From Terriglobia bacterium (GTDB lineage Bacteria > Acidobacteriota > Terriglobia > 2-12-FULL-54-10): a stretch of 64,000 nucleotides of DNA. Of this stretch, positions 2,220-43,256 are shown piece after piece. The first letter of the stretch is position 1; every line of letters begins with the position of its first letter. The position numbers and the translations under genes were made by a program. The notes beneath the pieces were generated by a model, which saw only the letters and a list, made by a program, of their open reading frames with translations, did no database searches and had not been told where the DNA came from. The stretch covers positions 641,625 through 705,624 of the forward strand of contig CBDCTS010000004.1 of NCBI GenBank assembly GCA_965222345.1, written 5' to 3'.

Positions 2220-2502
2220 GACCTGACTTCCTCCTCAAGTGGATTCTCTCTCTTTCCACTTGGTACAAAAAGGGCCGGTCAGGTCAGTATGAGTTCGCCC
2301 ATCAGATCGCGGCTCGCCGCGATCCGATGGACCTGCAAAGCCCGCAAGACTCACCCTGACCTTGGTACAGTAATCCGGGGCCCCTCATGATTCCGGTCTA
2401 CGTAGACTAGGAGGAGAGCGCCTACAAGGGGCACTTCGAGTCTACTTACTATCACCCCCTGCTACTGTTCAACTGACCTGCCCCCGGTTGTTGGTCCACT
2501 TT

Positions 2503-3357
2503 TTATGTTAGTCCATAAGCCGTTGCAGCCGGGTGGAGCGGAGCGGAACCCGGCCGTAACGGCAGGATCGCTTCCGGGGCTGGCGGCCGGTAGCCTAACG
2601 CGCTGTGCGGGCGAACTTTGTTATACTCCCGCCGCCATCCCTCAATCAACACCTTCGCTTCCTGCAAGGTGTAGAAGATCTCCCCATTGAGAAACTCGTC
2701 TCGAAACTTCCCGTTCAACGATTCTACATACCCGTTTTCCCATGGGCTCCCCGGCTCGATGAACAAGGTCTTTACCCCTACCCGCTCCAGCCAGTTCCGA
2801 ACCAACCGTGCTGTGAACTCGGACCCGTTATCCGAGCGAATGTAATCGGGAACTCCTCGCTCCACAAACAAGGCTGCCAGCCGTTCCAAGACACTCATCG
2901 AATCAGCTCGCCGTTCTACGTCGATTGCCAAACATTCTCGCGTGTACTCATCCACCACCGTCAACATCTTCAGGGGACGACCATCCTGGGTTCGATCTGC
3001 CACAAAATCGTACGCCCAGACATGATCCCGCCAGCACGGTCTTAACCGAAGACACGACCCATCGTTCAACCACAGGCGGCTTTTCCGGGGTTGTTTCTTC
3101 GGCACTTTCAGTCCCTCCTGCCTCCAGATTCTCTCCACCCGCTTATGGTTCACCCTCCACCCCTCCCGTCGCAACAGCGCCGTGATTCGCCGGTAGCCGT
3201 ATCGACCGTACTCGCCGGCTAACTGCAGCGTCCGGGTCACCAGTCGCGGTTCATCCTGTGGTGTCAAGGTTCGATGCCGCTGGGTGGATCGGTACTGCCT
3301 CAGCACTCGACACGCCCGCCGCTCCGACACTCCCAAGGTCTGACAGACACGCTCCAC
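2503..3357 (-). CDS. IS3-family transposase OrfB (element B copy 1)
   Basis: 284 aa rve-domain protein: WAYDFV, RSDNGSEF, WENGYVESLNG. Confidence 0.85.
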   Translation of the reverse strand: MERVCQTLGVSERRACRVLRQYRSTQRHRTLTPQDEPRLVTRTLQLAGEYGRYGYRRITALLRREGWRVNHKRVERIWRQEGLKVPKKQPRKSRLWLNDGSCLRLRPCWRDHVWAYDFVADRTQDGRPLKMLTVVDEYTRECLAIDVERRADSMSVLERLAALFVERGVPDYIRSDNGSEFTARLVRNWLERVGVKTLFIEPGSPWENGYVESLNGKFRDEFLNGEIFYTLQEAKVLIEGWRREYNKVRPHSALGYRPPAPEAILPLRPGSAPLHPAATAYGLT

Positions 3358-3380
3358 TGCCTGCCTCCGTCGGCACGGGC

Positions 3381-3659
3381 TTAGAAGTTTCCCGAGGATG
3401 CCTCCTTCAGAATCGCAAGGTCCAACGCCTGATCCGCTACCAACTTCTTCAGTCGGCCATTCTCCCGTTCCAGTTCCTTCAAACGCCTCACCTGATCAAC
3501 CCGCAAGCTCCCATACTCCTTCCGCCATCGATAATATGTCTGCTCCGTGATTCCCAACTTCCGACAGACCACTCCCGTTGTCTGGCCCTTAGCCAGTTCC
3601 ACTTCTGCCTCTCGTAGATGTCGGATGATCTGTTCGACCGTATACCGCTTCTTAGCCAT
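3381..3659 (-). CDS. IS3-family transposase OrfA (element B copy 1)
   Basis: 92 aa: YTVEQIIRHL..YYRWRKEYGSL, leucine zipper. Confidence 0.85.
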   Translation of the reverse strand: MAKKRYTVEQIIRHLREAEVELAKGQTTGVVCRKLGITEQTYYRWRKEYGSLRVDQVRRLKELERENGRLKKLVADQALDLAILKEASSGNF

Positions 3660-3737
3660 CCTTCCCCCTTTTTCAAGTCCAGTTGAAACCCTTTACTCTA
3701 ACTTATCAACTGGACCGTTTTTGGGGGGGCAGGTCAC

Positions 3738-17254: not shown

Positions 17255-18001
17255 TCAGATGCTAAGACTTGCCCGGTGCACTTCCAGGCGCATTTCAGTC
17301 TCACGATCTACCCTACGCAGGCACATTTCGGGATGGAGATGTAGAGCGGCGCGGTCAGTCTCGGCAATGAGTGGGGAGAACATGATGTGACCCCCGCTGT
17401 CAAAAGAGATCAGATGCGCGTCGAATGCAGCATCGAGATGCACGGCCAGCAACAGGCCGTTGTGCACGTCCAGCCGCTCGGCATCACTCTTGCATTCTGC
17501 CCATGGGATGATGTGGCTGGCGCGGAGAAGTCGCGGGTGGCTGACCCCTGTTACCGCGCAAGCACGGTCCCAAAACAGCATCAGCGCCTCGCGGAACACA
17601 TCCTGGCCGATACGTTCCTTGCGGAGCCGTTCTACCTCGGTGACTGCTGGAGGTTCGGTCAGACGCAGTCGGTATTGGCGAAGGGGTTCATCCGGTAGGC
17701 TGCGGGCAAGTCGCCAGATCGCGCCAGCAACGACGTTCAGCACACCGCTATCAGACACCTGCACTGCCAGAAAGCCGGGGGGCGCGTCGGGCAGCCGCGG
17801 CAGATCGGACTCCAAATCACGCACAGCGCCAAGGTGATCGCTGCCGATCCCATAGCCGCTATCGGTCACCGTCAGACACAGGCGGGCAGGAGCGGCGTGG
17901 GCCTGCCAGATCAGCCATTTACCCAAGGTGACTTGATTGATGCTGAATCCGTTGTCTACGGCGGCTTTTTCAAGGATTGTGCGAACTGCCATCGACAGCA
18001 T
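17255..18001 (-). CDS. HNH endonuclease (HNH_2-type, restriction-endonuclease-like)
   Basis: SHIIPWAE..DVHNGLLL..HLDAAFD motif set; 3 bp downstream of the preceding gene. Confidence 0.75.
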   Translation of the reverse strand: MLSMAVRTILEKAAVDNGFSINQVTLGKWLIWQAHAAPARLCLTVTDSGYGIGSDHLGAVRDLESDLPRLPDAPPGFLAVQVSDSGVLNVVAGAIWRLARSLPDEPLRQYRLRLTEPPAVTEVERLRKERIGQDVFREALMLFWDRACAVTGVSHPRLLRASHIIPWAECKSDAERLDVHNGLLLAVHLDAAFDAHLISFDSGGHIMFSPLIAETDRAALHLHPEMCLRRVDRETEMRLEVHRASLSI

Positions 18002-18003
18002 AG

Positions 18004-19275
18004 TTAATCCTCCAGAAATGAGTCTTTGGCCGCAGCAGCATCTCCGGATTGGAAGAGTCTCTTGACTGTCGCTGGATCGACTCCTGCACTTTCCATGAGC
18101 CTTCGAAGACTGGCCATCAATTCATTATTTTTCAGGTCCTCAATCGAAATGTCTTTGTAGACAACCTTGGCCTCAGTTGTGCCGAGAGTCACAGCCTTGT
18201 CGAACATACCGTCGGCGGCGCTTTCTATGTCTTTGCGACAGGATTTCTCGTCTGCTTTCCCGCGTCGCTTCAAATGGTCGGGTTGCGATATCTGCCACAG
18301 CTCCAGGAATTCTCCAACAAGCCGCTCGCGAAAGGTCTCCCTGCTGTTCTCAAACTTCATCTTCAGCGCTTTGTGGTATTCCGTGATGATTGCAACCAGA
18401 CGGTTCAGCTCGTTGGTCAATTGCTCCTTATCTTTTCGCAGGATGACCTTTCCGCGCCCCTTCCAGTCGTGAAAGAACGCGCGCTCGATACCGTCGCGCT
18501 CGCGCTTGATAGCGGCCTCGTTCACCTTGCACGTTTCATCACCACGATAGGATTTGATCGAGATGTCGAGTTCTGTCTTCAAGTCGATGGGGATTTTGAG
18601 ACTGGAGTCGATGTCACGTCGAAAAACCTCGTCCTCGAACTTCTGGAAACTTGGCGGCAGCTTGATCTTGCGGGAGCTGAAGGTAGCATTCGGCACACGG
18701 AGCTCAATGAACTGAACCTCGGTCATAAAAACGGTCAGCTTCCGCGTCAGATCGAAGGGATGTGGCGGACTAGCCTTCAGGTCTGCTTCCATTTGTGTAA
18801 CGCGTTCGGGCTCCATGCCTGTCACGCCAACTTCAATCTCGCCCTCGGTCGCGCCCGTTGCCTCGGCCAGCTTCTCGGTGACTCTGCCATCCAGCATGAT
18901 CGCGTTTGGTTTTTCCTCGGTGGTCGAACCTGCCTCGACATTGCGCGAGACAGGGGCGTAAACCATCGTACGGTCGTCCGAGATCACCACGCCGATGCGA
19001 ACACCGGGTTGTTCGCGCAGGTCGAACATTTGGTTTTGGCTCGCCTCACGGATGATCTCCAGCGCCTCTGGGTCTCCATAGCCCATGCGGTAGACCTCGG
19101 CATCGGCGTCGAGAATGACAGTCAACGACAGAGTTGGCATTTCATTCATGCGGGCGGCGAGCGCTTTGGCTACCGGGGTTGTTAGACCGGGGGCGATGAC
19201 GGCGATCCGGTCTTTCGCCCCTTCAATCAGGGCGATCAGGCTGTCGTCGGTGGCGGTGGTAAAGGTGCGGCTCAT
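18004..19275 (-). CDS. Uncharacterised 423-aa protein co-transcribed with the methyltransferase and HNH genes
   Basis: No recognisable catalytic motif and no HxK PLD motif. Lower GC than surrounding sequence, judged by eye. Confidence 0.55.
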   Translation of the reverse strand: MSRTFTTATDDSLIALIEGAKDRIAVIAPGLTTPVAKALAARMNEMPTLSLTVILDADAEVYRMGYGDPEALEIIREASQNQMFDLREQPGVRIGVVISDDRTMVYAPVSRNVEAGSTTEEKPNAIMLDGRVTEKLAEATGATEGEIEVGVTGMEPERVTQMEADLKASPPHPFDLTRKLTVFMTEVQFIELRVPNATFSSRKIKLPPSFQKFEDEVFRRDIDSSLKIPIDLKTELDISIKSYRGDETCKVNEAAIKRERDGIERAFFHDWKGRGKVILRKDKEQLTNELNRLVAIITEYHKALKMKFENSRETFRERLVGEFLELWQISQPDHLKRRGKADEKSCRKDIESAADGMFDKAVTLGTTEAKVVYKDISIEDLKNNELMASLRRLMESAGVDPATVKRLFQSGDAAAAKDSFLED

Positions 19276-19440
19276 CTCAAGCCCCCGTCAGCCGGTCGAA
19301 GGCGGCCAGAACAAGGCGTCGAGTGCGGTATTCGCCGTAGCGCTCGATCTCATTGCGTTTGAGGCCGCGGAAGGTTTCCGAGGGGTAACTATCCCCGTGA
19401 GTATCGGCGGGGTCGAGGATATAGCGCAACTCGTCGCGGC

Positions 19441-23655
<4,215 letters not shown>

Positions 23656-23666
23656 GTAGAATTTCC

Positions 23667-26459
23667 TTAGAGCGCGGGCATCAATACATAGAAACCAATG
23701 ACATCGACAGGCGTAATCGCGTCGACGCGGACTTGAGCCCGCGATCCCAGCGCCTGACGGACACGGGTGTGATCTTCAGCCAGTTTTTCCGCGCGCTCTT
23801 CGGCGTAGGAATTCAGCTTTGCCTCCAGCAACGGCAGCGCCGCGAGCCCGCGTTCTATCTCTGATTGCCGGAATGCCTCAGGCAGGTTGCCGCTGTCGTG
23901 CTCAAGTAGGCCGAATGCATTGTCACCGGCCATCGAGCGTGCTTGGCCCGAAGCAGAGAAGGCGATTGCCGCTGCCTCTTCCGCCATGCTGAACCTGGGT
24001 CCGAGCTTGCTCCGCGCATTGAGCTTGTGGCGGATGCGAAGGATCGCAAGCCACGTTACCTCGTCAACGCCAGCGCACTCCCAGGCACCCGTTCGGGGCA
24101 GAGCGGCAAGGTCATCTTTGGGTGCGAACGTGTCCAGCGCCTGCTCGAGAAAAGTCTCGGCCAGCACGCCGGGCAAAGGGTGGGCGCGGTGTATGGAAAT
24201 GCAGCCTGCAGGTGGCCGCGTAGAAAACCCGATCCTGATTGGCTTATCGCTCGCGTCCTCGATGAGGCTTTCGGCGACGAACCGTTCACGGAACGTCTCG
24301 GGCGTCAAGTGAACAGGCGCCCGGTATGCACCTGATGGAAGCGGGGTGAGCGCCGCGTTCAGCCGCTTCATCGCATGGATCACAAATCGTTCGGTGTCTT
24401 CATATCCACCGAGGGCAGACTGTGTCGCATCCCACTCCACCGCAACCTCTTCGGGCTTCAGAGCGTTTTGCGCAAAGATGGTGCGTGATTTCTTCTCGTT
24501 TTCGGAAGCATTCAGCCATGCCAGTTCGATTTGGTTAACCTCTTCGGAACCGCCTGAATCGAGGTCGAGGGTCATCTGCCGGGTTTCCTGCGCCCGCAGC
24601 AGCACCGCCGACATCAGGGCCTTTGTCAGGCTGCCATTGTCATCAGGTATCGGGACGCGAACCCCGGTTCGTTTTTCGATGGCGCGCGCCTTGCGAAGGA
24701 TCACGTTGAGAACGGCCCCGTCGACAGGATTGTTCTCCCCATAGATGAGCACGCTGCGCACGGTGGTGCTTTTCTGGCCGAACCGGTCTATGCGGCCCTC
24801 GCGCTGCTGGTGGCGCGTGGGGTTCCAGGACAGATCATAATGGATGACGGCATCGAACCAGCCCTGCAGGTTGATACCCTCCGAAAGGCAATCGGTGGCG
24901 ACCAGGATCCGGTTCTCGTGACCGCCGAGCTCTTCGACACGGACTTCGCGCTCGTCGGATGGCAGCATCCCGGTAACCACTTCGATCGTGTGGCTCCTGA
25001 AGGCCTTCATGAGAGCCGTAGCGACCTGTTCGGCCGTCGCGATGTACCGGCAGAAGACGACGGGTGAGAAGCCCTCACGGGTCAGCTCCTTGAGGGTTTT
25101 GACAAGAGCACGATACTTAGGGTCTTCGCCTATTTTTCCCGAGAGCGCTTCGGCCTGGCCGATCAGTGCGGCAAGGCGGGGATCGTCAATACCGGCGCCC
25201 GGTTCGAGATCGTCTTCCAGAAGTTCCTCGTCATCCAGGGTCTGCGCCGCGATGTGGGTTTCCGATATTTCCAAAGGATCAAGCTGCGCCCGGGTCTTCA
25301 AGGCTCTCGCACCTGCCGCGGGGCTCGAACCCACGCAGCGCATCAATGCTAGCGTGCCCCAGAATGCAAGGCGTTGCCGGGCATCGCCCTCGGCCGACGA
25401 GACGACCTCGGCGCAATAATCGAGAACCTGAATGTAGAAGTCTTCATAATCGCCCGTAAGTCGGTATTTGAGCTCAGTGGTTTCGTGCTGCGGGAATAGT
25501 CCGGGCTCATGCCATGCATCGATGTCGCGGCGTCTTCTCTGAATGAAGTGTGCGGCGAGTTTCTCGCGCAGGCTGCGTTGCGCTTCACCAGCGAGGTCCG
25601 GCAGGTTTGCAAACTCCTTGTCGATCAAACCAAGGAGATTGTGGAAAGCGGCCTCATTGCCGGAATGCGGGGTCGCAGTCAGCAGGATCAGGTGACGTTC
25701 GCGGTCGTCGGCCAGAGAGCGAACTAATTCGTATCGACGCTGCCGGCCACGGCCGCCGCTCACGGCGGAATGCGCTTCATCGACAACGACCATCTCGGGA
25801 CAGGCGCGCTTGAAGTCGAAAAAGCGCCTCTCGCTCTTGATGAAGTCGAGGCTCACGACCGTATAGGGGTAAGCTTCGAAAATGCTCGTCGTGTTGGGCA
25901 GATCCCTCTCAAGTCTCGCCGCCGCCGCCGTCAACGCTGTTGCCGGAATGGAGAATTTCGTCTCCAACTCCTGGGTCCATTGATCGACGAGGTGCGGCGG
26001 GCACAGAACCGTGAACCGGTCGATCTCGCCACGGTCCAGCATTTCGCGGAGGATCAACCCGGTCTCAATTGTCTTGCCGACGCCTACGTCATCGGCATTG
26101 AGGAGCCTGACCGTATCCTGGCGCAGCGCCAGCATGAGCGGTGCGAGCTGATAGGCTCGGGGTTCGAAGTTTATGCGGCCAGCGCTTCGGAACGGCCCTG
26201 CACCTCGACGCAAGGAGAGGCGAAGCGCATCCCTCAAGAGATGGGCCGCCTCTCGTCCACCCGACCGGGCTGCATCGGGGGCATCGAAGGTTGTGTAAAC
26301 GACCGGCTCAACCTCAAGGTCAGGCAGGATTGTCTCGATTTCTGCTTCAGAGCCTGTAAGGGGACGGAGCGAGAGCGCCGCATGAGCCTCGACAACAACC
26401 CATTCCCGTCCTCGAGCCCTGACAAGTTCACCTGGTGAAAACTGCTCGGCAACGCCCAT
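23667..26459 (-). CDS. SNF2-family helicase (DrmD-like)
   Basis: LNADDVGVGKT (motif I), VVVDEAH, LLTATPHSGN and QREGRIDRFGQ (motif VI). Confidence 0.9.
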   Translation of the reverse strand: MGVAEQFSPGELVRARGREWVVVEAHAALSLRPLTGSEAEIETILPDLEVEPVVYTTFDAPDAARSGGREAAHLLRDALRLSLRRGAGPFRSAGRINFEPRAYQLAPLMLALRQDTVRLLNADDVGVGKTIETGLILREMLDRGEIDRFTVLCPPHLVDQWTQELETKFSIPATALTAAAARLERDLPNTTSIFEAYPYTVVSLDFIKSERRFFDFKRACPEMVVVDEAHSAVSGGRGRQRRYELVRSLADDRERHLILLTATPHSGNEAAFHNLLGLIDKEFANLPDLAGEAQRSLREKLAAHFIQRRRRDIDAWHEPGLFPQHETTELKYRLTGDYEDFYIQVLDYCAEVVSSAEGDARQRLAFWGTLALMRCVGSSPAAGARALKTRAQLDPLEISETHIAAQTLDDEELLEDDLEPGAGIDDPRLAALIGQAEALSGKIGEDPKYRALVKTLKELTREGFSPVVFCRYIATAEQVATALMKAFRSHTIEVVTGMLPSDEREVRVEELGGHENRILVATDCLSEGINLQGWFDAVIHYDLSWNPTRHQQREGRIDRFGQKSTTVRSVLIYGENNPVDGAVLNVILRKARAIEKRTGVRVPIPDDNGSLTKALMSAVLLRAQETRQMTLDLDSGGSEEVNQIELAWLNASENEKKSRTIFAQNALKPEEVAVEWDATQSALGGYEDTERFVIHAMKRLNAALTPLPSGAYRAPVHLTPETFRERFVAESLIEDASDKPIRIGFSTRPPAGCISIHRAHPLPGVLAETFLEQALDTFAPKDDLAALPRTGAWECAGVDEVTWLAILRIRHKLNARSKLGPRFSMAEEAAAIAFSASGQARSMAGDNAFGLLEHDSGNLPEAFRQSEIERGLAALPLLEAKLNSYAEERAEKLAEDHTRVRQALGSRAQVRVDAITPVDVIGFYVLMPAL

Positions 26460-26463
26460 CGCC

Positions 26464-29400
26464 CTATCCCTTCAACACTTCATGGAGTTCTTCGTCGAAT
26501 GCAGCGCGGCGGCCGGGATCGGCTGGACGCTCCATTACCCTGACGCCCTTTGAAACCAGCTTCTCAAGGATGCCCTCATTGCCTTCACCCTCTTCCACAA
26601 CAACGAGCCGTGCACTGCGCCAGATATTCCGGAAGACCATGCCCTCGATCACCAGCGGTTTTTCATCCGGGGCCGGCGTATGGTCCGATGTCCCGCTTTT
26701 CTGTGCTTGATCAGCATCAGAGTGATCCGCATGCGCAAGCCGCAGCAGGAACGAAAGAGCGGCAGGGTCGCGCCGATCGATCAGCTCGTGATCGGGCTGA
26801 TTGAAATAAGAGAGTACGCAGCGGTAGCATCCGGCGACACACGCCGGCTCTCCTGTTTCGGACAGACGCTCCGGATTGCCTTTCGCTTCGCCAAAGCTGG
26901 CCGAATCGTAGTGCATGATCTCGAGTGCGCATTGGGCGACCTGCATCAAACCGTCATTCCAACTGACAAGTTGCGCTAATGCGCCCGCGCCGCCCTCTGC
27001 GGACTCATAAAACAGAAGTGCGTTTCTTTCGTCGGAGCTGGGTGCCGGCTCGACGAGGATTTCCCCTTCTTCCAATTGGAAAACAGATTCAATACCGCGT
27101 ACCAGTGCATGCTGAATTGTGGCGAGCGAGCGGCGTCTTTCCGATCCGAGTTCGGCAAGCCAAAGCTGGGGGAAACGAAGAAGCAGCGCATTCTTGCGGT
27201 CTTCAACCAGTGGAACGATAAGCTGCTGTAGCGTGTCGGGCCGGTTCTCGTCCTCGACGTTTTCTTTCTTCTCACCAACCCACACGCCGGATTTAGGATT
27301 GATGAAGAAGCCGACCTTCTCTTTGTCCTTGCGGCGGCGCAGTCCCTTGTTGATCCGGCTTATCTGCGCAGCCTGTGCGAAATCCAGCGTTACGATTGCA
27401 CCTGCAGGATCACGAATGACCTGTTGAGACGTGAAACTGGCGCTCTCGAACGAAAAGGTTGTCTGAAGTTCGAAACCTTGACGCTTCCGGTCCTCATTAT
27501 TCGATGTGATCCGCTCAACTGGCCGTGTGCCGACATTCTCGATCCGGTAGAGGTTGTGAACTAGGATCGCTCCATCCAGCTTCAAGCCGCAGACATGGCA
27601 CTTCTCGGGGTGTTCTCCGGGGTGTCCCGCGCCGCAGGTTTTGCAAATTGCGCGGCTTTGCGTTGTCAGCATGCCATCGGGGCGGTCGCCGGCTTCTTTC
27701 AGAAGCGCTCGGTCCACGCGGAACGCGCGGCCTTCATGGTAGACGAGGCTCTGCGGGCCAAACTCGGAAATCGCGAGAAACCTGGCGCGCTGGATATAGC
27801 GCTGGTTCTTGCCGTCAGAACCGCCCTGGACGTAGGCCATGAGTGGCAGGCGGGGGAAATTATACCCGGGAAGGAAGCCCTCCGTCGCGAGATACCGGTA
27901 CAGATAGAAGTCGTTATTCTGGGTTGATGTAGACTGCAGCAGTGTTTTCCGCTGCCAGTTTCCCATGGCGAGGCGGCTTTCGGACGCTTTCCGCTCCCGC
28001 GGAGAAATCGAGTAATCGTTGAGCGTCCGCGTCGCCAGTTCCACCGTCCGTTCGGCAGCGGCAAGCAGGTCGCGCCAACGATCAAATGCCCGACCGAAGT
28101 CGGCAGGCGCACGCTCGATCAAGGTGCGGACGAATGCCTCGCGGCCGGAGTACCAATGTGGAGAATCTCCGGCATAGTCCTCCTCGAGTGATGCGAGGAC
28201 CGTTTCGATGCGCGCGGCCGCCCGGTTCGAAGCTTCTGTGGAATTGATGACCTCGGAAATGTGGGAATGGAGCGGGCGCCCCGCATCTGACATGTCGAGG
28301 TTCTCGGGGATTCGAGGCAGCATCTCGGCCCCGCTCGCAGCAAGCCACTCCGCATGAAGGTGGCTCTCGACCAGATCCCGGTTGCCCAGATCGATTGAAG
28401 GCGGAACGACAACGCCATCGACCAGATCCTGCTTGCGGTCGAAGAAATATTGATCGTGCGGGCTCTGGGCGGCGCAGTAGGTCATGATCAGGGCGGCTTG
28501 GCCGCTGCGCCCAGCGCGCCCGCTGCGTTGGGCATAGTTCGCTGCCGTTGGTGGAGCGTTCCGGAGATAGACGACGTTCATCGAGGATATGTCGACGCCT
28601 AGCTCCATGGTTGGTGAGCAAAACAGTGTGGGCAGGAAGCGCCCGCTTTCGCGGTGTTCCTTGAGTTGATCCTTCTTTTCGTCAAGCTTTTCCTGATCAT
28701 CCTCTCCGTACCGAAAGCGAAACTCGCGCAGCTCGCGAAGTTCGCTCTCTACCTGCGCCGTATGCTCGCGCCCCTCGATCCCGAAGAGAGGGGCCGCATC
28801 AACTTCAAGGGCTTCAAATACGGATTTGTAGAGATTGGCAAAGAAACGGTTCGTCACTTCCGGATCCTGTGGGTCGGTCTGCAGATGGTAGTGGATGGTC
28901 TTGGCAATGAGCCGCCAACCGATACCACCTACTGGCGCCGAAACTTCTTCGACAATGCCGTAATTCTTTGCCGCCTGCAGCAAAGTCTCCAGGACCTCGG
29001 GAACGTCACTGGCACTCAGTTTCCTGGTGCCGAATCGGATTGCGCGGATTTTTCTTGCGAGAGCGCTTGTGGGCGTGCCGCGCAGGAGGCGCTCCTCGTC
29101 CCGTGGGCCGATCTTTGCACGTTTCGGCGGATCGAGCATCAATACTGACGCGCCTACCGTGGTTTCTTCCTCGAGCGACCAGGGTGCCTTGATCTGACCT
29201 CGCATCGTTTGAGTGATCGCGTCGAGCTTCTGTCGCCCGAGGACGGAGGTGTTTACCGCCAGGCCTTTTCTCATGTGGTCGAAAAGCTCCTGAAGCGCGG
29301 ATTGCCGTTCACCGGCGGACGCCGACTGCAGGATGGGTGATGCGGTGAACTCTTCATCATCTCGAGACAGATCGCCGATGTACTGGTATTCAGCGCGAAC

Positions 29401-31707
29401 GAGACCGAGCTGTTCGAGGTTCGGATTGGTGAACCGCCATCCCCGGCGCTGATCGATCCAGAAACGATGCTGGAGACCTTCGCGGAGTACAGCTTCCGCA
29501 TCCTCTCGCGCCTGTCCTTTCAGGCCGGGATTTTCCAGCCATTCTTCGGCGCGATGGGCAAATGCCCTGTCTGCAAGGAAGCCAAGGGCCGCCTGGATTC
29601 TCGCGCCGATTTCAGGTTCTGGAATTGAGCTGCCAGGTGCCGACTTGAGGGCGCACAGGATAGCTGCCCTCAGGAGAGTAACGAATATGAAATCGTTGAA
29701 ATATCCGGCTTGAAGGGCTGCATCCTGACGGTTGTCCGTGAAGGCCAGCAGCTTGCGCGTGTGTTCGGGCAGGTCCGATGCAGCGCTATTCATCCAGTGC
29801 AGGATGCTGGAAATCAGGATCGTTGTCGCCGAGCTTCGGCCTTCACCGCTCAGAGACGCAAGTTTGTTGATATCGCGGGCGGAAGTGTTGGAAACATCCA
29901 AGCAAGCCGGACAGAAACGGAATTTCCCCGGCATGAACCAGCATCGATTCCCCATCCCGCAATAGCCGCTTGGTGCGACTTCATGTAGACGGGCTCTGCG
30001 TTTGCGGTAGGTGGATTTCAGGCGTCTTTCGCCGCTCTTCGTATCCTCCAGCCATGCCTCCGGGTAATCATCGTTGTCTCCCTTGAAGGCGAACTCAGGG
30101 TCGGCGGGCTCGGGCATCAAAAATCCCCACTCGGCCCCTTCATCTTCCTCGTCTGCCTCGACGGGGATATCGTCAATCTCCCGTTTCTCGAAATACTCGC
30201 GCCCCTGATCGGTTCGCAAAGTAACAGGGTGAAATTCCTGACCGCAGTTCCGGCAGAAATGGACCGGATACAGACGCTCTTCTTTGTTTTGCGGGTTGAA
30301 TATCTGACCGGAGAACGTTGCATCGCGCTCGCCTTCCGGACGAAGAGTCGCATACAAGCGTCCCGCTCCGGCGATGAATTGATGGAGCTTGAAGGCGAAC
30401 AGCGGATCGCCGCTCCCATCGGTTACTCCGCGCTGGTTCTCCGGAGTACTGAATCCAATCAGGGAGTTCCGAAGAGCCGTCACGCAGTCATTTTCGGAAA
30501 ACCCGCAGTCGACAGCCAGCGCCTTAGCGGCCCACTGCAGCGAAACAGGTCTCGCCCGCTCAGGCTTGTGATCAACGTTCTTCAATCCGATCCGTGTCTC
30601 GATCCAGACGGCTAGATCGTCCTGTGCGAGATCGCCATTCGTGAGCCCCTGGCCAACATTGCCCTTCAGGGCGGCCTCGACCGCCGCCACAAGTCCAGGC
30701 AGTTTACGTTCGCCACTCCTGGACGTGTCAGTTACGCGGCAGAGCGTTTCCGTAACGACCGCATCCGCTCCGATTTTGGCGCTAAAGATTTTTGAAGCAA
30801 TTCGGGCCACAGCTGCATTTTTTTCTTCCGCAGCGCCTTCGCTAGCCATAGTCGCGGACGTGCCTACGCAAATCGGTGGATGCTTCTGATCGCCAATCCG
30901 CGCCTTGAGACGGCGCATCAGCATCGCCACATCTGCGCCCTGACGACCGCGGTAGGTGTGCAACTCATCCAGCACGACAAACTGTAAGCCGCGGCAATTA
31001 TCAATGACCTTCCGGTCCAGATCGTTCTGCCGCGTCATGAGCAACTCAAGCATCATGAAATTCGTGAGTAGGATGTCTGGCGGGTTGTCCTTAATACGCC
31101 CTCGTTCCTCGTTGCCTTCCTGACCGGTATATCGTGCGAAGGTTGGGGTATGCGGGTGTCCTGCGCCGAGATAGCACCTCAGCTCTTCTGCCTGGCTGTT
31201 TGCCAACGCGTTCATCGGGTAAATGATGATCGCGCGGGTTATCGGGGGTTGGCCCGCTTTCCGCGCCTTGATCGCGGCATCGATGATCGGGATGAAGAAA
31301 CACAGCGACTTCCCCGAGCCAGTTCCGGTCGTGACGACATAACTCTGATTGTTCAGGGCATAACCGACGGCCTGCTGCTGGTGCTTGCGAAGCTTGAGGG
31401 TTCGATCTTTTTCAGCTACGGAGGCGGAGAGGTCTCGAAACACGTCGGCACATTCCGGTTCCAGATCACCGGCATTGATGAAATCCTGGATCGATCTACC
31501 TGCAGCGTAGTGCGGGTTGAGTTGGATCAACGGATCGGGCCAGAAGCGCTTGGTAGCATACAGTTCATCAACCTTCGCTTTAAGTTTTTGCGAGCGGATA
31601 TTGGTAAATGAGCGGGCGAAAGCCTTGTAATGATTGATGACGGTTTCATCAAGATTGAATGCGTCCATTACAAACTCCCGTCCGGAGCGATCTGGGTTCT
31701 GCCGCAA
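26464..31707 (-). CDS. Giant DEAH-box helicase with a C-terminal DUF1998-type zinc-binding domain (DrmA-DrmB fusion-like, or DruE-like)
   Basis: VTTGTGSGKS, VLDELH, GTSAT and QRSGRAGRSGQ, plus an internal Zn-ribbon HFCRNCGQEFH/CPAC and a C-terminal ACVAGCYRCVLSYFNQPDHELIDRRDP (MrfA/DUF1998-like). The stop is 5 bp from the SNF2 start. Confidence 0.85.
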   Translation of the reverse strand: MRQNPDRSGREFVMDAFNLDETVINHYKAFARSFTNIRSQKLKAKVDELYATKRFWPDPLIQLNPHYAAGRSIQDFINAGDLEPECADVFRDLSASVAEKDRTLKLRKHQQQAVGYALNNQSYVVTTGTGSGKSLCFFIPIIDAAIKARKAGQPPITRAIIIYPMNALANSQAEELRCYLGAGHPHTPTFARYTGQEGNEERGRIKDNPPDILLTNFMMLELLMTRQNDLDRKVIDNCRGLQFVVLDELHTYRGRQGADVAMLMRRLKARIGDQKHPPICVGTSATMASEGAAEEKNAAVARIASKIFSAKIGADAVVTETLCRVTDTSRSGERKLPGLVAAVEAALKGNVGQGLTNGDLAQDDLAVWIETRIGLKNVDHKPERARPVSLQWAAKALAVDCGFSENDCVTALRNSLIGFSTPENQRGVTDGSGDPLFAFKLHQFIAGAGRLYATLRPEGERDATFSGQIFNPQNKEERLYPVHFCRNCGQEFHPVTLRTDQGREYFEKREIDDIPVEADEEDEGAEWGFLMPEPADPEFAFKGDNDDYPEAWLEDTKSGERRLKSTYRKRRARLHEVAPSGYCGMGNRCWFMPGKFRFCPACLDVSNTSARDINKLASLSGEGRSSATTILISSILHWMNSAASDLPEHTRKLLAFTDNRQDAALQAGYFNDFIFVTLLRAAILCALKSAPGSSIPEPEIGARIQAALGFLADRAFAHRAEEWLENPGLKGQAREDAEAVLREGLQHRFWIDQRRGWRFTNPNLEQLGLVRAEYQYIGDLSRDDEEFTASPILQSASAGERQSALQELFDHMRKGLAVNTSVLGRQKLDAITQTMRGQIKAPWSLEEETTVGASVLMLDPPKRAKIGPRDEERLLRGTPTSALARKIRAIRFGTRKLSASDVPEVLETLLQAAKNYGIVEEVSAPVGGIGWRLIAKTIHYHLQTDPQDPEVTNRFFANLYKSVFEALEVDAAPLFGIEGREHTAQVESELRELREFRFRYGEDDQEKLDEKKDQLKEHRESGRFLPTLFCSPTMELGVDISSMNVVYLRNAPPTAANYAQRSGRAGRSGQAALIMTYCAAQSPHDQYFFDRKQDLVDGVVVPPSIDLGNRDLVESHLHAEWLAASGAEMLPRIPENLDMSDAGRPLHSHISEVINSTEASNRAAARIETVLASLEEDYAGDSPHWYSGREAFVRTLIERAPADFGRAFDRWRDLLAAAERTVELATRTLNDYSISPRERKASESRLAMGNWQRKTLLQSTSTQNNDFYLYRYLATEGFLPGYNFPRLPLMAYVQGGSDGKNQRYIQRARFLAISEFGPQSLVYHEGRAFRVDRALLKEAGDRPDGMLTTQSRAICKTCGAGHPGEHPEKCHVCGLKLDGAILVHNLYRIENVGTRPVERITSNNEDRKRQGFELQTTFSFESASFTSQQVIRDPAGAIVTLDFAQAAQISRINKGLRRRKDKEKVGFFINPKSGVWVGEKKENVEDENRPDTLQQLIVPLVEDRKNALLLRFPQLWLAELGSERRRSLATIQHALVRGIESVFQLEEGEILVEPAPSSDERNALLFYESAEGGAGALAQLVSWNDGLMQVAQCALEIMHYDSASFGEAKGNPERLSETGEPACVAGCYRCVLSYFNQPDHELIDRRDPAALSFLLRLAHADHSDADQAQKSGTSDHTPAPDEKPLVIEGMVFRNIWRSARLVVVEEGEGNEGILEKLVSKGVRVMERPADPGRRAAFDEELHEVLKG

Positions 31708-31992: not shown

Positions 31993-33393
31993 TCACTTGC
32001 TCCAAGCCTCCTGCCATGCTGTAAACTCAGAAGGCCTGATCTGGTAGCGCGCGAAATTTCCCTCGTGCAGACCCAGAAGTTCCCTCTCGGCTACCTCGCA
32101 AAACCGCTCGCGCTCCTGCTGTTCAATAAGCTCCTGTGCCCATGCGTTGACGTGGACGGTGGCCTGCTTCTTGTCCATGCGTCCGCGAACGACCGCGCCG
32201 ACAACCTTGCGCAGCGCCATTCGGTGTCGCATCCGAAATGGATCTGGCTCGCCCAGCGACTGCTTTACTGCAGCATAGCGGGCGGCGGATCGCTTATAGG
32301 CCCAGATGAACACATCGCGAAGCAATTCGATGCGGTTCAGCTCGTAGACACCGAGCACGGCTTCGGTATAAACGCCCCGAGGCACGCTCTCGAAGGACAA
32401 CGGCGATAGATTCGCCTTGATCAGTGGAATGTTCGCTGAGAGTCGCGACACCCGCTTGTTGACATCATCGAACGGCTGCAAATAGGGAAGCTGCACCATT
32501 ACGAAGAAGGCCTGCTCGAACGGATCAATGATCGCTGAGGCGGTGGCGAGAATCTGATCGAAGCACTCTTCGATGAGTTGCGGGACCTCCAGCGGATGAA
32601 AGACCGAGCCTTCGATACCGACGCCGATATGCCGGAGCCGGCCCGCCGCATTCGGATCGGCAAGCAGGTTGCCCGCCAGCAGCGCATGAAGGTTGAGAAT
32701 GGTGTAGCGATTGAAGCCGATCTCCTCTGCTGCGTCGACCAGAAACTCGATCGCGTCCTTGTGGTTAAGGATCATCTGCGCCTCGGATCGTTCCTTCCCT
32801 TCCGCTTCTTTGCCAAGATCGATCAAACGCGCTGTATCGAGCAGCGAATAGGTGTTGCCCTCAAGACGGCTGGAGTTCCAGGATAGATCGATCAGCAGCC
32901 TGTTCAAAATCTGTTTGGCATAAGTCCCGGCGGTCTGGTTGGCGATATTAGGCCTGCCGAACTCCTGCAGGTGTGCTCGCTCCGCTTGCGAGAGATAGAA
33001 GGTATCGTTGGGCCGGTACGAATCGAGGAACGCGCGGGTATAGCCAACCGGCTTACGTGCCTCGGGCGGCCGGCAGACATACTCCTGAATCTCGGTGCCG
33101 GCCTCGGAGAACGGGGGCAGGACTTGGGCCCGCGCACTGGCTGTGGGGGATCCTGTGACTGCGTGGCCTGCCGCTGAGACCTGTCGCGGCCCGCGGTAGC
33201 GCGCCCCGCGGCCCGCGCCCTCCATAACCAAGCGCTTGCTATCGACGAGGTACTTGAGGCGGTATTGCAGGGTTCTGCGCGGCGGCGCGGACTCCAGCGC
33301 ATCGTTGATCTGCTGCGCGGTCACGCCTTCCGGATGGCGCCGTGCAGCCTGCTCGATCACCTGCAAATACTCTTCTCGAATGCGCCTTGCCAC
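31993..33393 (-). CDS. Fic/Doc-family protein with a degenerate motif (QPFDDVNKR) and an N-terminal winged-helix region
   Basis: S-SRL-EG inhibitory-helix-like motif and the core LQPFDDVNKRVSRL in place of HPFx(D/E)GNGR. A Doc-like NKR is present but the His is Gln. Confidence 0.75.
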   Translation of the reverse strand: MARRIREEYLQVIEQAARRHPEGVTAQQINDALESAPPRRTLQYRLKYLVDSKRLVMEGAGRGARYRGPRQVSAAGHAVTGSPTASARAQVLPPFSEAGTEIQEYVCRPPEARKPVGYTRAFLDSYRPNDTFYLSQAERAHLQEFGRPNIANQTAGTYAKQILNRLLIDLSWNSSRLEGNTYSLLDTARLIDLGKEAEGKERSEAQMILNHKDAIEFLVDAAEEIGFNRYTILNLHALLAGNLLADPNAAGRLRHIGVGIEGSVFHPLEVPQLIEECFDQILATASAIIDPFEQAFFVMVQLPYLQPFDDVNKRVSRLSANIPLIKANLSPLSFESVPRGVYTEAVLGVYELNRIELLRDVFIWAYKRSAARYAAVKQSLGEPDPFRMRHRMALRKVVGAVVRGRMDKKQATVHVNAWAQELIEQQERERFCEVAERELLGLHEGNFARYQIRPSEFTAWQEAWSK

Positions 33394-33524
33394 TATATTT
33401 CCCTTTATTGCGTGTAAGTTTATTCGCGTAGCTTAGACTACCTACGCGCAACTATCAATAATATACGCAAAATATAACTGCTCCTAGTCCTCCAATGACC
33501 TGCCCCCGGTTGTTGGTCCACTTT

Positions 33525-34379
33525 TTATGTTAGTCCATAAGCCGTTGCAGCCGGGTGGAGCGGAGCGGAACCCGGCCGTAACGGCAGGATCGCTTCCGGG
33601 GCTGGCGGCCGGTAGCCTAACGCGCTGTGCGGGCGAACTTTGTTATACTCCCGCCGCCATCCCTCAATCAACACCTTCGCTTCCTGCAAGGTGTAGAAGA
33701 TCTCCCCATTGAGAAACTCGTCTCGAAACTTCCCGTTCAACGATTCTACATACCCGTTTTCCCATGGGCTCCCCGGCTCGATGAACAAGGTCTTTACCCC
33801 TACCCGCTCCAGCCAGTTCCGAACCAACCGTGCTGTGAACTCGGACCCGTTATCCGAGCGAATGTAATCGGGAACTCCTCGCTCCACAAACAAGGCTGCC
33901 AGCCGTTCCAAGACACTCATCGAATCAGCTCGCCGTTCTACGTCGATTGCCAAACATTCTCGCGTGTACTCATCCACCACCGTCAACATCTTCAGGGGAC
34001 GACCATCCTGGGTTCGATCTGCCACAAAATCGTACGCCCAGACATGATCCCGCCAGCACGGTCTTAACCGAAGACACGACCCATCGTTCAACCACAGGCG
34101 GCTTTTCCGGGGTTGTTTCTTCGGCACTTTCAGTCCCTCCTGCCTCCAGATTCTCTCCACCCGCTTATGGTTCACCCTCCACCCCTCCCGTCGCAACAGC
34201 GCCGTGATTCGCCGGTAGCCGTATCGACCGTACTCGCCGGCTAACTGCAGCGTCCGGGTCACCAGTCGCGGTTCATCCTGTGGTGTCAAGGTTCGATGCC
34301 GCTGGGTGGATCGGTACTGCCTCAGCACTCGACACGCCCGCCGCTCCGACACTCCCAAGGTCTGACAGACACGCTCCAC
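33525..34379 (-). CDS. IS3-family transposase OrfB (element B copy 2)
   Basis: Identical to 2503..3357. Confidence 0.85.
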   Translation of the reverse strand: MERVCQTLGVSERRACRVLRQYRSTQRHRTLTPQDEPRLVTRTLQLAGEYGRYGYRRITALLRREGWRVNHKRVERIWRQEGLKVPKKQPRKSRLWLNDGSCLRLRPCWRDHVWAYDFVADRTQDGRPLKMLTVVDEYTRECLAIDVERRADSMSVLERLAALFVERGVPDYIRSDNGSEFTARLVRNWLERVGVKTLFIEPGSPWENGYVESLNGKFRDEFLNGEIFYTLQEAKVLIEGWRREYNKVRPHSALGYRPPAPEAILPLRPGSAPLHPAATAYGLT

Positions 34380-34402
34380 TGCCTGCCTCCGTCGGCACGG
34401 GC

Positions 34403-34681
34403 TTAGAAGTTTCCCGAGGATGCCTCCTTCAGAATCGCAAGGTCCAACGCCTGATCCGCTACCAACTTCTTCAGTCGGCCATTCTCCCGTTCCAGTTCCT
34501 TCAAACGCCTCACCTGATCAACCCGCAAGCTCCCATACTCCTTCCGCCATCGATAATATGTCTGCTCCGTGATTCCCAACTTCCGACAGACCACTCCCGT
34601 TGTCTGGCCCTTAGCCAGTTCCACTTCTGCCTCTCGTAGATGTCGGATGATCTGTTCGACCGTATACCGCTTCTTAGCCAT
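34403..34681 (-). CDS. IS3-family transposase OrfA (element B copy 2)
   Basis: Identical to 3381..3659. Confidence 0.85.
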   Translation of the reverse strand: MAKKRYTVEQIIRHLREAEVELAKGQTTGVVCRKLGITEQTYYRWRKEYGSLRVDQVRRLKELERENGRLKKLVADQALDLAILKEASSGNF

Positions 34682-34837
34682 CCTTCCCCCTTTTTCAAGT
34701 CCAGTTGAAACCCTTTACTCTAACTTATCAACTGGACCGTTTTTGGGGGGGCAGGTCACTTATCAGAGGGGCCGGAACGGAGAAGCTGCAAGCAATACTT
34801 GCATTATACATGTATTCCATATGTCAAGAAAAATCTT

Positions 34838-42594: not shown

Positions 42595-42815
42595 GTCGGC
42601 AGATTCGGTTCCCTCGGTTGATTCGGTTTCTTCGGTTCTCTCGGAATGTTCGGTAGATTCGGGATGTTCGGTTCCTTCGGAAGAATCAGCCTATCTGTTT
42701 CCTTCGGTTCCCTCGGTTCCCTCGGCAGATTCGGCATCCTCGGTAGATTCGGTTTCCTCGGTTCTCTCGGAATGTTCGGTTCCTTCGGTAGATTCGGAAT
42801 CCTCGGAAGAATTTT
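42595..42815. repeat. Tandem array of about 24 nonamer repeats (consensus CGGNNNNTT), itself duplicated as two about 100-bp higher-order units
   Basis: Read directly: cggcagatt cggttccct cggttgatt cggtttctt ... repeated twice. Period is a multiple of 3 and lies inside overlapping low-confidence ORFs. Confidence 0.7.
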
Positions 42816-43256
42816 ATTGTCCCCGGAATTTGCGCCAGGGAGAATCGGGGCGGAGGGCGTTTGGGAGGTTTCAGGCTCCTTCTTTCGCCCCTTCCGGGGC
42901 TGATGCAGGGCTGCCTTTGCCACCCACGGCTGGCGTCGTGGGCTGGACTCTGGCGCCCCTCTGGGGCTACACAGGCGTTGCGGAAAGCTATAGACCGACT
43001 GTGAAAACCTTGCCGGGGGAAGGAGCAAGAAGAAAAAGCTTTTTTTGCAAAACGAACCCATTGCAAAACTTCAGAAATCCAGCCTAACTATTGCATATAA
43101 AAGAGATATAAAATATGCAGAAGATCGGGGCAATGGCTTCGTTATTGGCTTTGATTTGGCTTTGATTGGGGTTTGATTGGCCAAGAAAGCCAATGATTGG
43201 GGGGTAACAGGAAAGTCAGGGTGTTGATTTCCGGAGTCTCGCTTTGGCTGGAGGGT

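Follow-up and report, generated by a model that had tools for sequence, protein, structure and literature searches.

A probable ARMADA Type I operon in a Terriglobia bacterium with an HNH_2 endonuclease as fourth gene and an embedded gene encoding a PLD-superfamily fold

Which anti-phage system is encoded by an operon that combines a YprA-family helicase, an SNF2 helicase and an N6-adenine DNA methyltransferase with an HNH nuclease, and which of its products might cut DNA? We addressed this question for a stretch of 64,000 nt from a Terriglobia bacterium (Acidobacteriota; NCBI GenBank assembly GCA_965222345.1, contig CBDCTS010000004.1, positions 641,625 to 705,624 of the forward strand), hereafter called the window, in whose positions all coordinates are given unless another locus is named. 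The operon occupies 17255-31707. An initial annotation of this DNA had described five co-directional, tightly spaced genes, and all five open reading frames (ORFs) were found where it had placed them, nearly abutting on the minus strand with gaps of 4, 11, 165 and 2 nt in the order from the helicase to the HNH gene. The G+C content of the region was 56-63%, its composition was unremarkable, and scans for promoters and terminators within the operon returned no minus-strand signals. The same annotation had interpreted the genes as an undescribed variant of DISARM class 1 or a DISARM/Druantia hybrid. We instead consider it probable that this is an anti-phage operon of ARMADA Type I which belongs to a sub-clade in which an HNH_2 endonuclease forms a conserved fourth, 3' gene. 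All functional statements made here are derived from architecture and comparative genomics.

ARMADA was described in a 2025 preprint (Bell et al., bioRxiv 10.1101/2025.09.15.676423; PMC12458937). According to this preprint, ARMADA operons encode a YprA-family helicase closest to that of Druantia, have in common with DISARM class 1 both a BrxHII/RapA-like helicase and a PglX-like methylase, and represent a "missing link" between DISARM and Druantia. Type I is given there with the gene order YprA, BrxHII-like helicase, PglX-like methylase. Its helicase is stated to carry BrxA-like, zinc beta-barrel and MarR-like inserts and, within the OB region, a single zinc module. ARMADA helicases are said to terminate in a Vsr-type nuclease predicted to be active, which Table S2 marks as "active?" for Type I. 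Table S1 lists Tistrella mobilis CP121049.1 as a carrier of an ARMADA Type I helicase. The corresponding T. mobilis operon (locus L112) and the window were 82% identical in the SNF2 protein, 70% in the methylase and 70% in the HNH protein. On account of gene content, gene order and this orthology we assigned the first three genes of the window to ARMADA Type I: the helicase with its OB-CON-DUF1998 region fused in one protein of 1734/1747 aa, the adjoining SNF2 helicase and the methylase with its NPPW motif. The architecture thus already carries a name, contrary to what had been assumed at first. The likeness to Type I further includes the Druantia-like character of the helicase and a Vsr-type domain following DUF1998. 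On the other hand, the C-terminus of the helicase did not show the Vsr-type PD-(D/E)xK nuclease that is predicted to be active in Type I, since the catalytic motif is absent here, and the HNH_2 fourth gene, a slot for cargo genes and a gene for a 423-aa protein with a PLD-superfamily fold set the window apart.

The first gene (26464-31707, minus strand) encodes the ArmC-like helicase, with the Pfam domains DEAD, Helicase_C and MZB. The ORF measures 1747 aa from a TTG codon, and the deposited protein of 1734 aa starts at Met14; translation probably begins at the ATG at 31668, which gives the shorter product. An MrfA-type Cys4 zinc-binding domain (DUF1998) was located at residues 1532-1631 (26815-27114, minus strand), where Pfam PF09369 scored 36-41 bits against a cut-off of 24.2, in agreement with the initial annotation. 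That annotation had called the enzyme a DEAH helicase, but motif II reads DELH and thus belongs to the DExH type. Its remark that the protein resembles DruE proved well founded. The best PADLOC matches were DruE1 (294 bits, 6e-88) and DruE3 (275 bits, 4.5e-82) versus 54 bits (1e-15) for DrmA, so that the helicase lies nearer to DruE than to DrmA as judged by PADLOC scores. Clusters of CxxC motifs occurred around residue 495 and at residues 600-625 and 1365-1390, and the protein was collinear with the DruE models.

The second gene (23667-26459, minus strand) encodes an ArmA-like SNF2 helicase of the BrxHII/RapA type with 930 aa and the Pfam domains SNF2-rel_dom and Helicase_C. It scored 271 bits with the NCBIfam DrmD model, which is below the cut-off of 610, 242 bits with the PADLOC DrmD model, 201 bits with BrxHI/BrxHII of PADLOC and 115 bits with RapA. 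It also matched the PADLOC v2 model PDLC02853, labelled "DpdE", from end to end at 617 bits. The third gene (19441-23655, minus strand) encodes an ArmB-like, PglX-type N6-adenine DNA methyltransferase with the Pfam domain Eco57I/N6_Mtase and 1404 aa as called, in whose translation the S-adenosylmethionine-binding motif DPACGSGHF and the motif GNPPW are visible. The PADLOC DrmMI model, for which PADLOC has no curated cut-off, matched at 240 bits but covered residues 464-784 only, and the NCBIfam model for BREX-2 PglX reached 62 bits. Residues 1-485 gave nothing in Pfam at E = 10, and the IIG models of PADLOC matched the methylase core only. At the same Pfam threshold nothing useful was found in the helicase tail, in the N- and C-terminal parts of the methylase or in the N-terminus of the HNH protein. 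The Pfam domains thus confirmed the SNF2, NPPW methylase and HNH_2 assignments made at first sight. Under the PADLOC v2 labels, which are DpdE or DrmD for the SNF2 protein and DruE for the helicase, such loci will be misfiled by automated annotation, and automated tools would probably assign the SNF2 gene to a Dpd system.

The order of the three core genes recurred in relatives. A metagenome scan anchored on the SNF2 protein yielded 80 loci with SNF2 identities of 42-68%, and both a YprA homologue upstream and a methylase downstream of the SNF2 gene were present in all loci that reached far enough (76/76 in each case).

DISARM class 1 (DrmD, DrmMI, DrmA, DrmB, DrmC) resembles the window operon in its SNF2 protein, large adenine methylase, superfamily 2 helicase and DUF1998 protein and in being linked to methylation. 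The best named defence matches of the SNF2 protein and the methylase were indeed DrmD and DrmMI, and the DruE matches of the helicase together with the absence of an H-x-K PLD gene would agree with a variant or hybrid in which the HNH and 423-aa proteins replace DrmC. The relatedness implied by the DISARM class 1 signature therefore stands, whereas membership does not: apart from the DrmD score already given, the NCBIfam DISARM DrmA-L model reached 14 bits on the helicase against a cut-off of 999. In DISARM, helicase and DUF1998 are moreover split in two genes, DrmA and DrmB, the helicase belongs to another YprA branch, and the nuclease is an H-x-K PLD protein with a four-helix bundle. No DrmC or PLD model of Pfam or PADLOC matched any of the five proteins, as had been noted at first for the H-x-K motif. 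Druantia (types I-III) shares with the window a large YprA-family helicase of the same collinear domain order. It pairs DruE, however, with DruA-D, DruM/F/G or DruH, and has no pair of SNF2 and PglX-like proteins; PADLOC models of the Druantia partner genes found no match in genes 2-5 or in nine flanking proteins. As the architecture is also that of ARMADA Type I, with an orthologous operon in its catalogue, and as the HNH and 423-aa genes do not form a conserved pair, a new DISARM variant or hybrid is largely refuted and has become very improbable.

Within ARMADA, Type II (ArmA-D) has been validated experimentally, in E. coli. It provides direct, non-abortive defence and has in common with the window an SNF2 protein, a YprA-like helicase and a PglX-like methylase, whose NPPW motif is essential. 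Its gene order is the reverse one (SNF2, methylase, YprA), its fourth gene encodes a RelE-GajB/UvrD helicase and not an HNH protein, and its helicase carries extra EEP and Vsr domains. By analogy with ARMADA Type II, DISARM and BREX, the methylase of the window would place N6-adenine marks on host DNA, both ATP-driven translocases would engage unmodified or invading DNA, and this DNA would next be cut without killing of the cell. In other members of the clade cutting is predicted to take place in the C-terminal Vsr/DUF559 domain of the helicase; here an HNH nuclease encoded in trans would most likely supply this activity, the catalytic motif of the Vsr domain being lost.

This loss became visible when C-terminal tails were extracted from 75 related helicases and the full-length tails were aligned. 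A minority showed a clear D-F...(I/V)DGPHH...D...G-x-x-V-x-R-F signature, and five intact tails matched Pfam DUF559 with 21.6-28.9 bits (cut-off 20.6). The tail of the window helicase aligned to this Vsr domain (26467-26730, minus strand), with the motif replaced by FRN...VVVEEGE and a deletion of about 9 residues, and it matched neither Vsr/DUF559 nor any other nuclease model of Pfam. Judged from these residues, the Vsr domain is present but predicted to be inactive.

The last gene (17255-18001, minus strand) encodes the HNH_2 endonuclease of 248 aa (Pfam HNH_2, 1.9e-14) with a conserved N-terminal alpha/beta domain. Among the metagenomic loci with a complete methylase, 40/56 encoded a homologue downstream, always on the same strand and 0.2-4.9 kb past the methylase; in 5 of the 16 loci scored as lacking it, the available sequence extends downstream by less than about 3.1 kb. 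When HNH homologues of 49-70% identity served as the starting point, five look-ups led to four ARMADA-I operons and one contig edge. Presence of the HNH gene was related to the state of the Vsr motif: the gene was present in 31 and absent from 1 of the loci with a degenerate motif, and present in 7 and absent from 9 of those with an intact motif (Fisher's exact p = 5.7e-5, a value that overstates the association because few independent transitions, perhaps one to three, underlie it). Seven more cases combine a degenerate motif with an HNH gene, namely the window and the genome loci L008, L012, L028, L029, L112 and L115. In a neighbour-joining tree of the SNF2 proteins the loci with an intact motif formed a single clade. 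Of the two sub-clades into which this clade divides, the deeper one and a small group within the other lacked the HNH gene, whereas the gene was kept in all but one of the scorable loci with a degenerate motif. This distribution fits an order of events in which the HNH gene was gained, the Vsr domain decayed and the HNH gene was then retained. The initial suggestion that the HNH protein is the nuclease of the system thereby gained support, with the difference that it would replace the decayed Vsr domain of the helicase and not DrmC.

The HNH_2 protein might also be an independent, stand-alone restriction enzyme, for example a modification-dependent one of Type IV, that merely tends to adjoin ARMADA-I, with a helicase that needs no nuclease partner. 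Its homologues are named "restriction endonuclease" by their sources, the structure that matches it best is that of VcaM4I, an enzyme of Type IV, the gene is found beside some intact Vsr domains and not beside others, and the slot ahead of it carries independent defence genes. We nevertheless regard such an independent role as rather unlikely, as the gene keeps a fixed 3' place on the same strand down to 42% SNF2 identity, is retained in 31/32 loci with a degenerate Vsr motif, and was found in ARMADA-I operons in 4/5 look-ups of the full-length family, which shares the N-terminal domain; this domain is unlike known readers of modified bases, EVE and SRA among them.

Several points weigh against the assignment to ARMADA Type I with HNH_2 as fourth component. 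For the BrxA-like, zinc beta-barrel and MarR-like inserts of ARMADA helicases the analysis covered the sequence, with the CxxC clusters and the collinearity with DruE models given above. In the preprint's account (PMC12458937) only Type II was tested experimentally, Type I is so far a bioinformatic prediction, and the proposed mechanism rests on analogy. The association between Vsr decay and the HNH gene is suggestive and no proof, given that it may reflect one to three independent events, and the HNH gene stands beside an intact Vsr domain in 7 loci and hence is no strict substitute; with VcaM4I as its best structural match, the enzyme could be a free-standing modification-dependent one. The text of the preprint and the supplements consulted mention neither an HNH partner nor the loss of the Vsr motif nor a cargo slot, though the figures may draw an HNH gene. 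Finally, the methylase is frameshifted in the assembly, so this copy may be inactive unless a base was miscalled. The tracking of Vsr loss by the HNH gene offers a directly testable hypothesis on the seat of nuclease activity in Type I, and it suggests that definitions of this type by three genes would miss a component.

The frameshift concerns a run of C in the methylase ORF, where 7 C at 19517-19523 leave a deficit of 1 nt and 8 C restore the frame. The last approximately 80 residues of the protein are encoded in another frame down to 19280, next to the start of the 423-aa gene at 19275 (run and out-of-frame C-terminus together 19277-19523, minus strand). This tail was 90% identical to the L008 orthologue over 80 aa (tblastn; DNA compared directly), and the intact methylase would measure about 1461 aa. 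Because of this -1 frameshift, the gap of 165 nt behind the called methylase is an artefact. The shift may have arisen by a sequencing error in the homopolymer; otherwise it is an inactivation of very recent date that is possibly prone to slippage. Taken together with the degenerate nuclease motif of the helicase and the insertion sequence (IS) copies that flank the surrounding island, it could mean that the operon is a decaying, non-functional copy carried passively. We regard this as rather unlikely, as all remaining ORFs are intact across 14 kb, the high identity of the out-of-frame tail argues for a very recent shift or a sequencing error, and the dead Vsr motif is a conserved state of the whole clade and no private lesion of this copy.

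The interval between methylase and HNH gene turned out to be variable. In the 40 HNH-bearing metagenomic loci it was empty in about 6, contained an LmuB-like/DUF2326 SMC-type ATPase in 16, an AAA_15/21 ATPase matching HEC-03B in 7 (often accompanied by an RNA ligase and a HEC-03A-like protein), a GmrSD protein with a HEC-05 match in 3, AbiD in 2 and a UvrD/GajB-like helicase in 1, and unidentified ORFs in the remaining loci. An apparent gene of about 270 aa behind the methylase of relatives was dismissed as a further occupant, being in fact the methylase's own C-terminal region. The interval is therefore a slot for variable defence genes, in a pattern like that of "embedded" genes. "Guilt by embedding" was introduced by Payne et al. 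2024 (10.1101/2024.01.29.577857) for co-oriented extra genes nested in Hma, BREX, DISARM and Type I restriction-modification (R-M) systems. The slot cargo of the relatives matches the HEC-03 and HEC-05 models of that study, whose host systems did not include ARMADA-I; the variable slot thus carries the idea of embedded defence genes over to ARMADA.

Two further observations were made on loci of this group. Methylases accompanied by an LmuB-like gene in L012 (3174-8003), L112 (3092-8029) and L121 (3617-8053) measured 1478-1645 aa, compared with about 1461 aa for the intact window protein, the surplus lying at the C-terminus. In T. mobilis CP121049.1 (L112) the HNH gene is directly followed, at 10759-20762 of that locus, by genes for an HEPN_Swt1-SNF2 fusion of 1194 aa, a SACS-domain protein of 1043 aa and a large AAA_19/30-UvrD_C helicase, which looks like another multi-gene defence candidate.

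In the window the slot is occupied by the fourth gene (18004-19275, minus strand), whose 423-aa product had been considered unrecognisable at first. Its N-terminus, at about residues 1-130 (18886-19275), has a PLD-superfamily fold, and the C-terminal part behind it is made up of alpha/beta structure and long helices. The motif R93-I-G95-x4-D100 stands in place of H-x-K-x4-D and was invariant in the family down to 24% identity; D56, D58, R63, E114 and N124 were likewise conserved. The initial annotation had reasoned that a PLD fold in this protein would turn the operon into a canonical DISARM, but this does not apply to a fold in which R-x-G replaces H-x-K. A canonical DISARM with a hidden PLD nuclease was rejected on this ground and for the failed DISARM equivalog cut-offs. 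Identities to PLD-fold proteins with altered catalytic sites (FAM83 DUF1669, the TrmB C-terminal domain) and to PLD nucleases (Nuc, NucT, Zucchini) were 9-18%, from all of which the protein differs in its R-x-G-x4-D motif and in the additional C-terminal part of about 290 residues, which has no clear match. No match was obtained in Pfam, PADLOC, NCBIfam or PHROGs, in a phage collection or among the HEC/PDC models of PADLOC v2, and a profile of the family produced chance hits only when compared with PDB sequences.

The family itself is large and well conserved. A word-indexed search returned 277-335 homologues. With an exhaustive profile search the number rose to 1449 clusters at 50% identity, of which 1002 had E <= 1e-10. 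Named members are all "hypothetical", and a precomputed Pfam domain was present in none of the members listed. We inspected the gene context in 31 loci (29 from a genome scan and 2 from protein look-ups); for two distant representatives the contigs were too short for context. ARMADA-I genes adjoined the homologue in 6/31 loci, in five of them together with an HNH gene (L008, L012, L021, L028 and L029), and L010 had a distant pair of SNF2 and methylase only. In other loci the gene followed BrxL of a BREX operon (L009), lay between HsdS and HsdR (L011, L018) or after HsdR (L016), stood beside Hma genes (L001, L004, L023) or preceded a DUF559-helicase (L026), and the rest showed no recognised neighbour. 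A pooled PADLOC scan of 59 neighbours recovered only HmaC, Type I REase and specificity subunits, and mad5. On an Acinetobacter towneri plasmid (NZ_CP090385.1, L118) a BREX-1 operon holds a member with 25% identity (WP_039048211.1, 8986-10242 of that locus) between its pglX and pglZ genes, the gene boundaries overlapping, and a CBASS cyclase locus follows a few kb downstream. Embedding in the sense of Payne et al. is thus seen in the window (methylase/HNH), in A. towneri (pglX/pglZ) and in L011 and L018 (hsdS/hsdR).

Of the 80 ARMADA-I metagenomic loci, by contrast, only one contained a relative (L080, 23% identity). The pairing of HNH and 423-aa genes in the position of the PLD gene, which had been proposed at first, found no support in the gene neighbourhoods, and a two-gene module of both was discarded as the counts of co-occurrence contradict it: the family was present without this HNH gene in 25/31 loci, and the HNH gene without the family in 40 related loci. 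We take the 423-aa protein to be most probably independent cargo, a defence or accessory gene embedded in the operon that is co-transcribed with this system without being specific to it, and neither an ARMADA component nor a partner of the HNH protein. Binding of a ligand or nucleic acid through an altered PLD pocket would be the most economical guess at its biochemical role.

A case can also be made that the protein is a true subunit of methylation-based systems, for instance a DrmC-like accessory or regulator working with PglX-like methylases. In the window as in the BREX-1 operon of A. towneri, its gene directly follows that of a PglX-like methylase, the stop codon of one overlapping the start codon of the next; all host systems that it accompanies (BREX, Type I R-M, Hma, ARMADA) are methylation-based, and DrmC of DISARM likewise has a PLD fold. 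However, a homologue was undetectable in ARMADA-I metagenomic loci other than L080, about half of the genome loci had no identified R-M-like neighbour, the position shifts between hosts (after the methylase, after BrxL, between HsdS and HsdR, after HsdR), H-x-K is absent and the DrmC model did not match, all of which makes a subunit improbable. As embedded cargo, the family is a large, unannotated PLD-fold candidate for a new defence or accessory gene. A wider picture is conceivable, though less likely than not, in which a large branch of ARMADA-I would have swapped nucleases: once a dedicated HNH_2 protein with an N-terminal domain of its own had been gained, the Vsr nuclease of the helicase would have decayed to a structural remnant, which possibly serves as the dock of the HNH protein. 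The slot would have come to collect unrelated defence modules, and the 423-aa protein would found a new, widespread R-x-G PLD-fold family (about 1000 or more clusters at 50% identity). If so, the members of this family would travel as defence or sensor proteins in operons of BREX, Type I R-M, Hma and ARMADA.

The operon lies in an island bounded by IS elements, as had been noticed at first. Self-BLAST revealed two copies of 1268 bp with 99.9% identity at 2470-3737 (left boundary) and 33493-34759 (right boundary), both on the minus strand, with a transposase of the rve family (Pfam rve, rve_3, HTH_21). In direct orientation they bracket approximately 30 kb, a defence island built like a composite transposon. 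Downstream of the operon a gene at 14526-15929 (minus strand) encodes a 467-aa protein with an N-terminal TIR domain (PADLOC PDC-S66 3.9e-59, ThsB1 1.6e-33), likely a separate defence gene. The gene immediately upstream of the helicase (31993-33393, likewise minus strand) encodes a Fic-domain protein of 466 aa that is PDC-S04/SoFic-like in PADLOC. Neither was accepted as part of the operon, as homologues occurred in 0/80 related loci, and we regard both as neighbouring island genes. The island further contains a gene for a 798-aa protein (8731-11127, minus strand) in which about ten ankyrin repeats, seen in the DNA as a 102-bp periodicity, are fused to an M48 peptidase (PADLOC PDC-M72A, 8e-54), and a mutagenesis-type cassette at 11929-14143 (plus strand) that consists of a SRAP (SOS-response-associated peptidase) gene followed by a Y-family (impB/mucB) DNA polymerase gene. 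At 42596-42830 the window carries dense 9/18-bp tandem repeats with TCGGTTCCC-like units within overlapping ORFs, which presumably encode a repetitive peptide.

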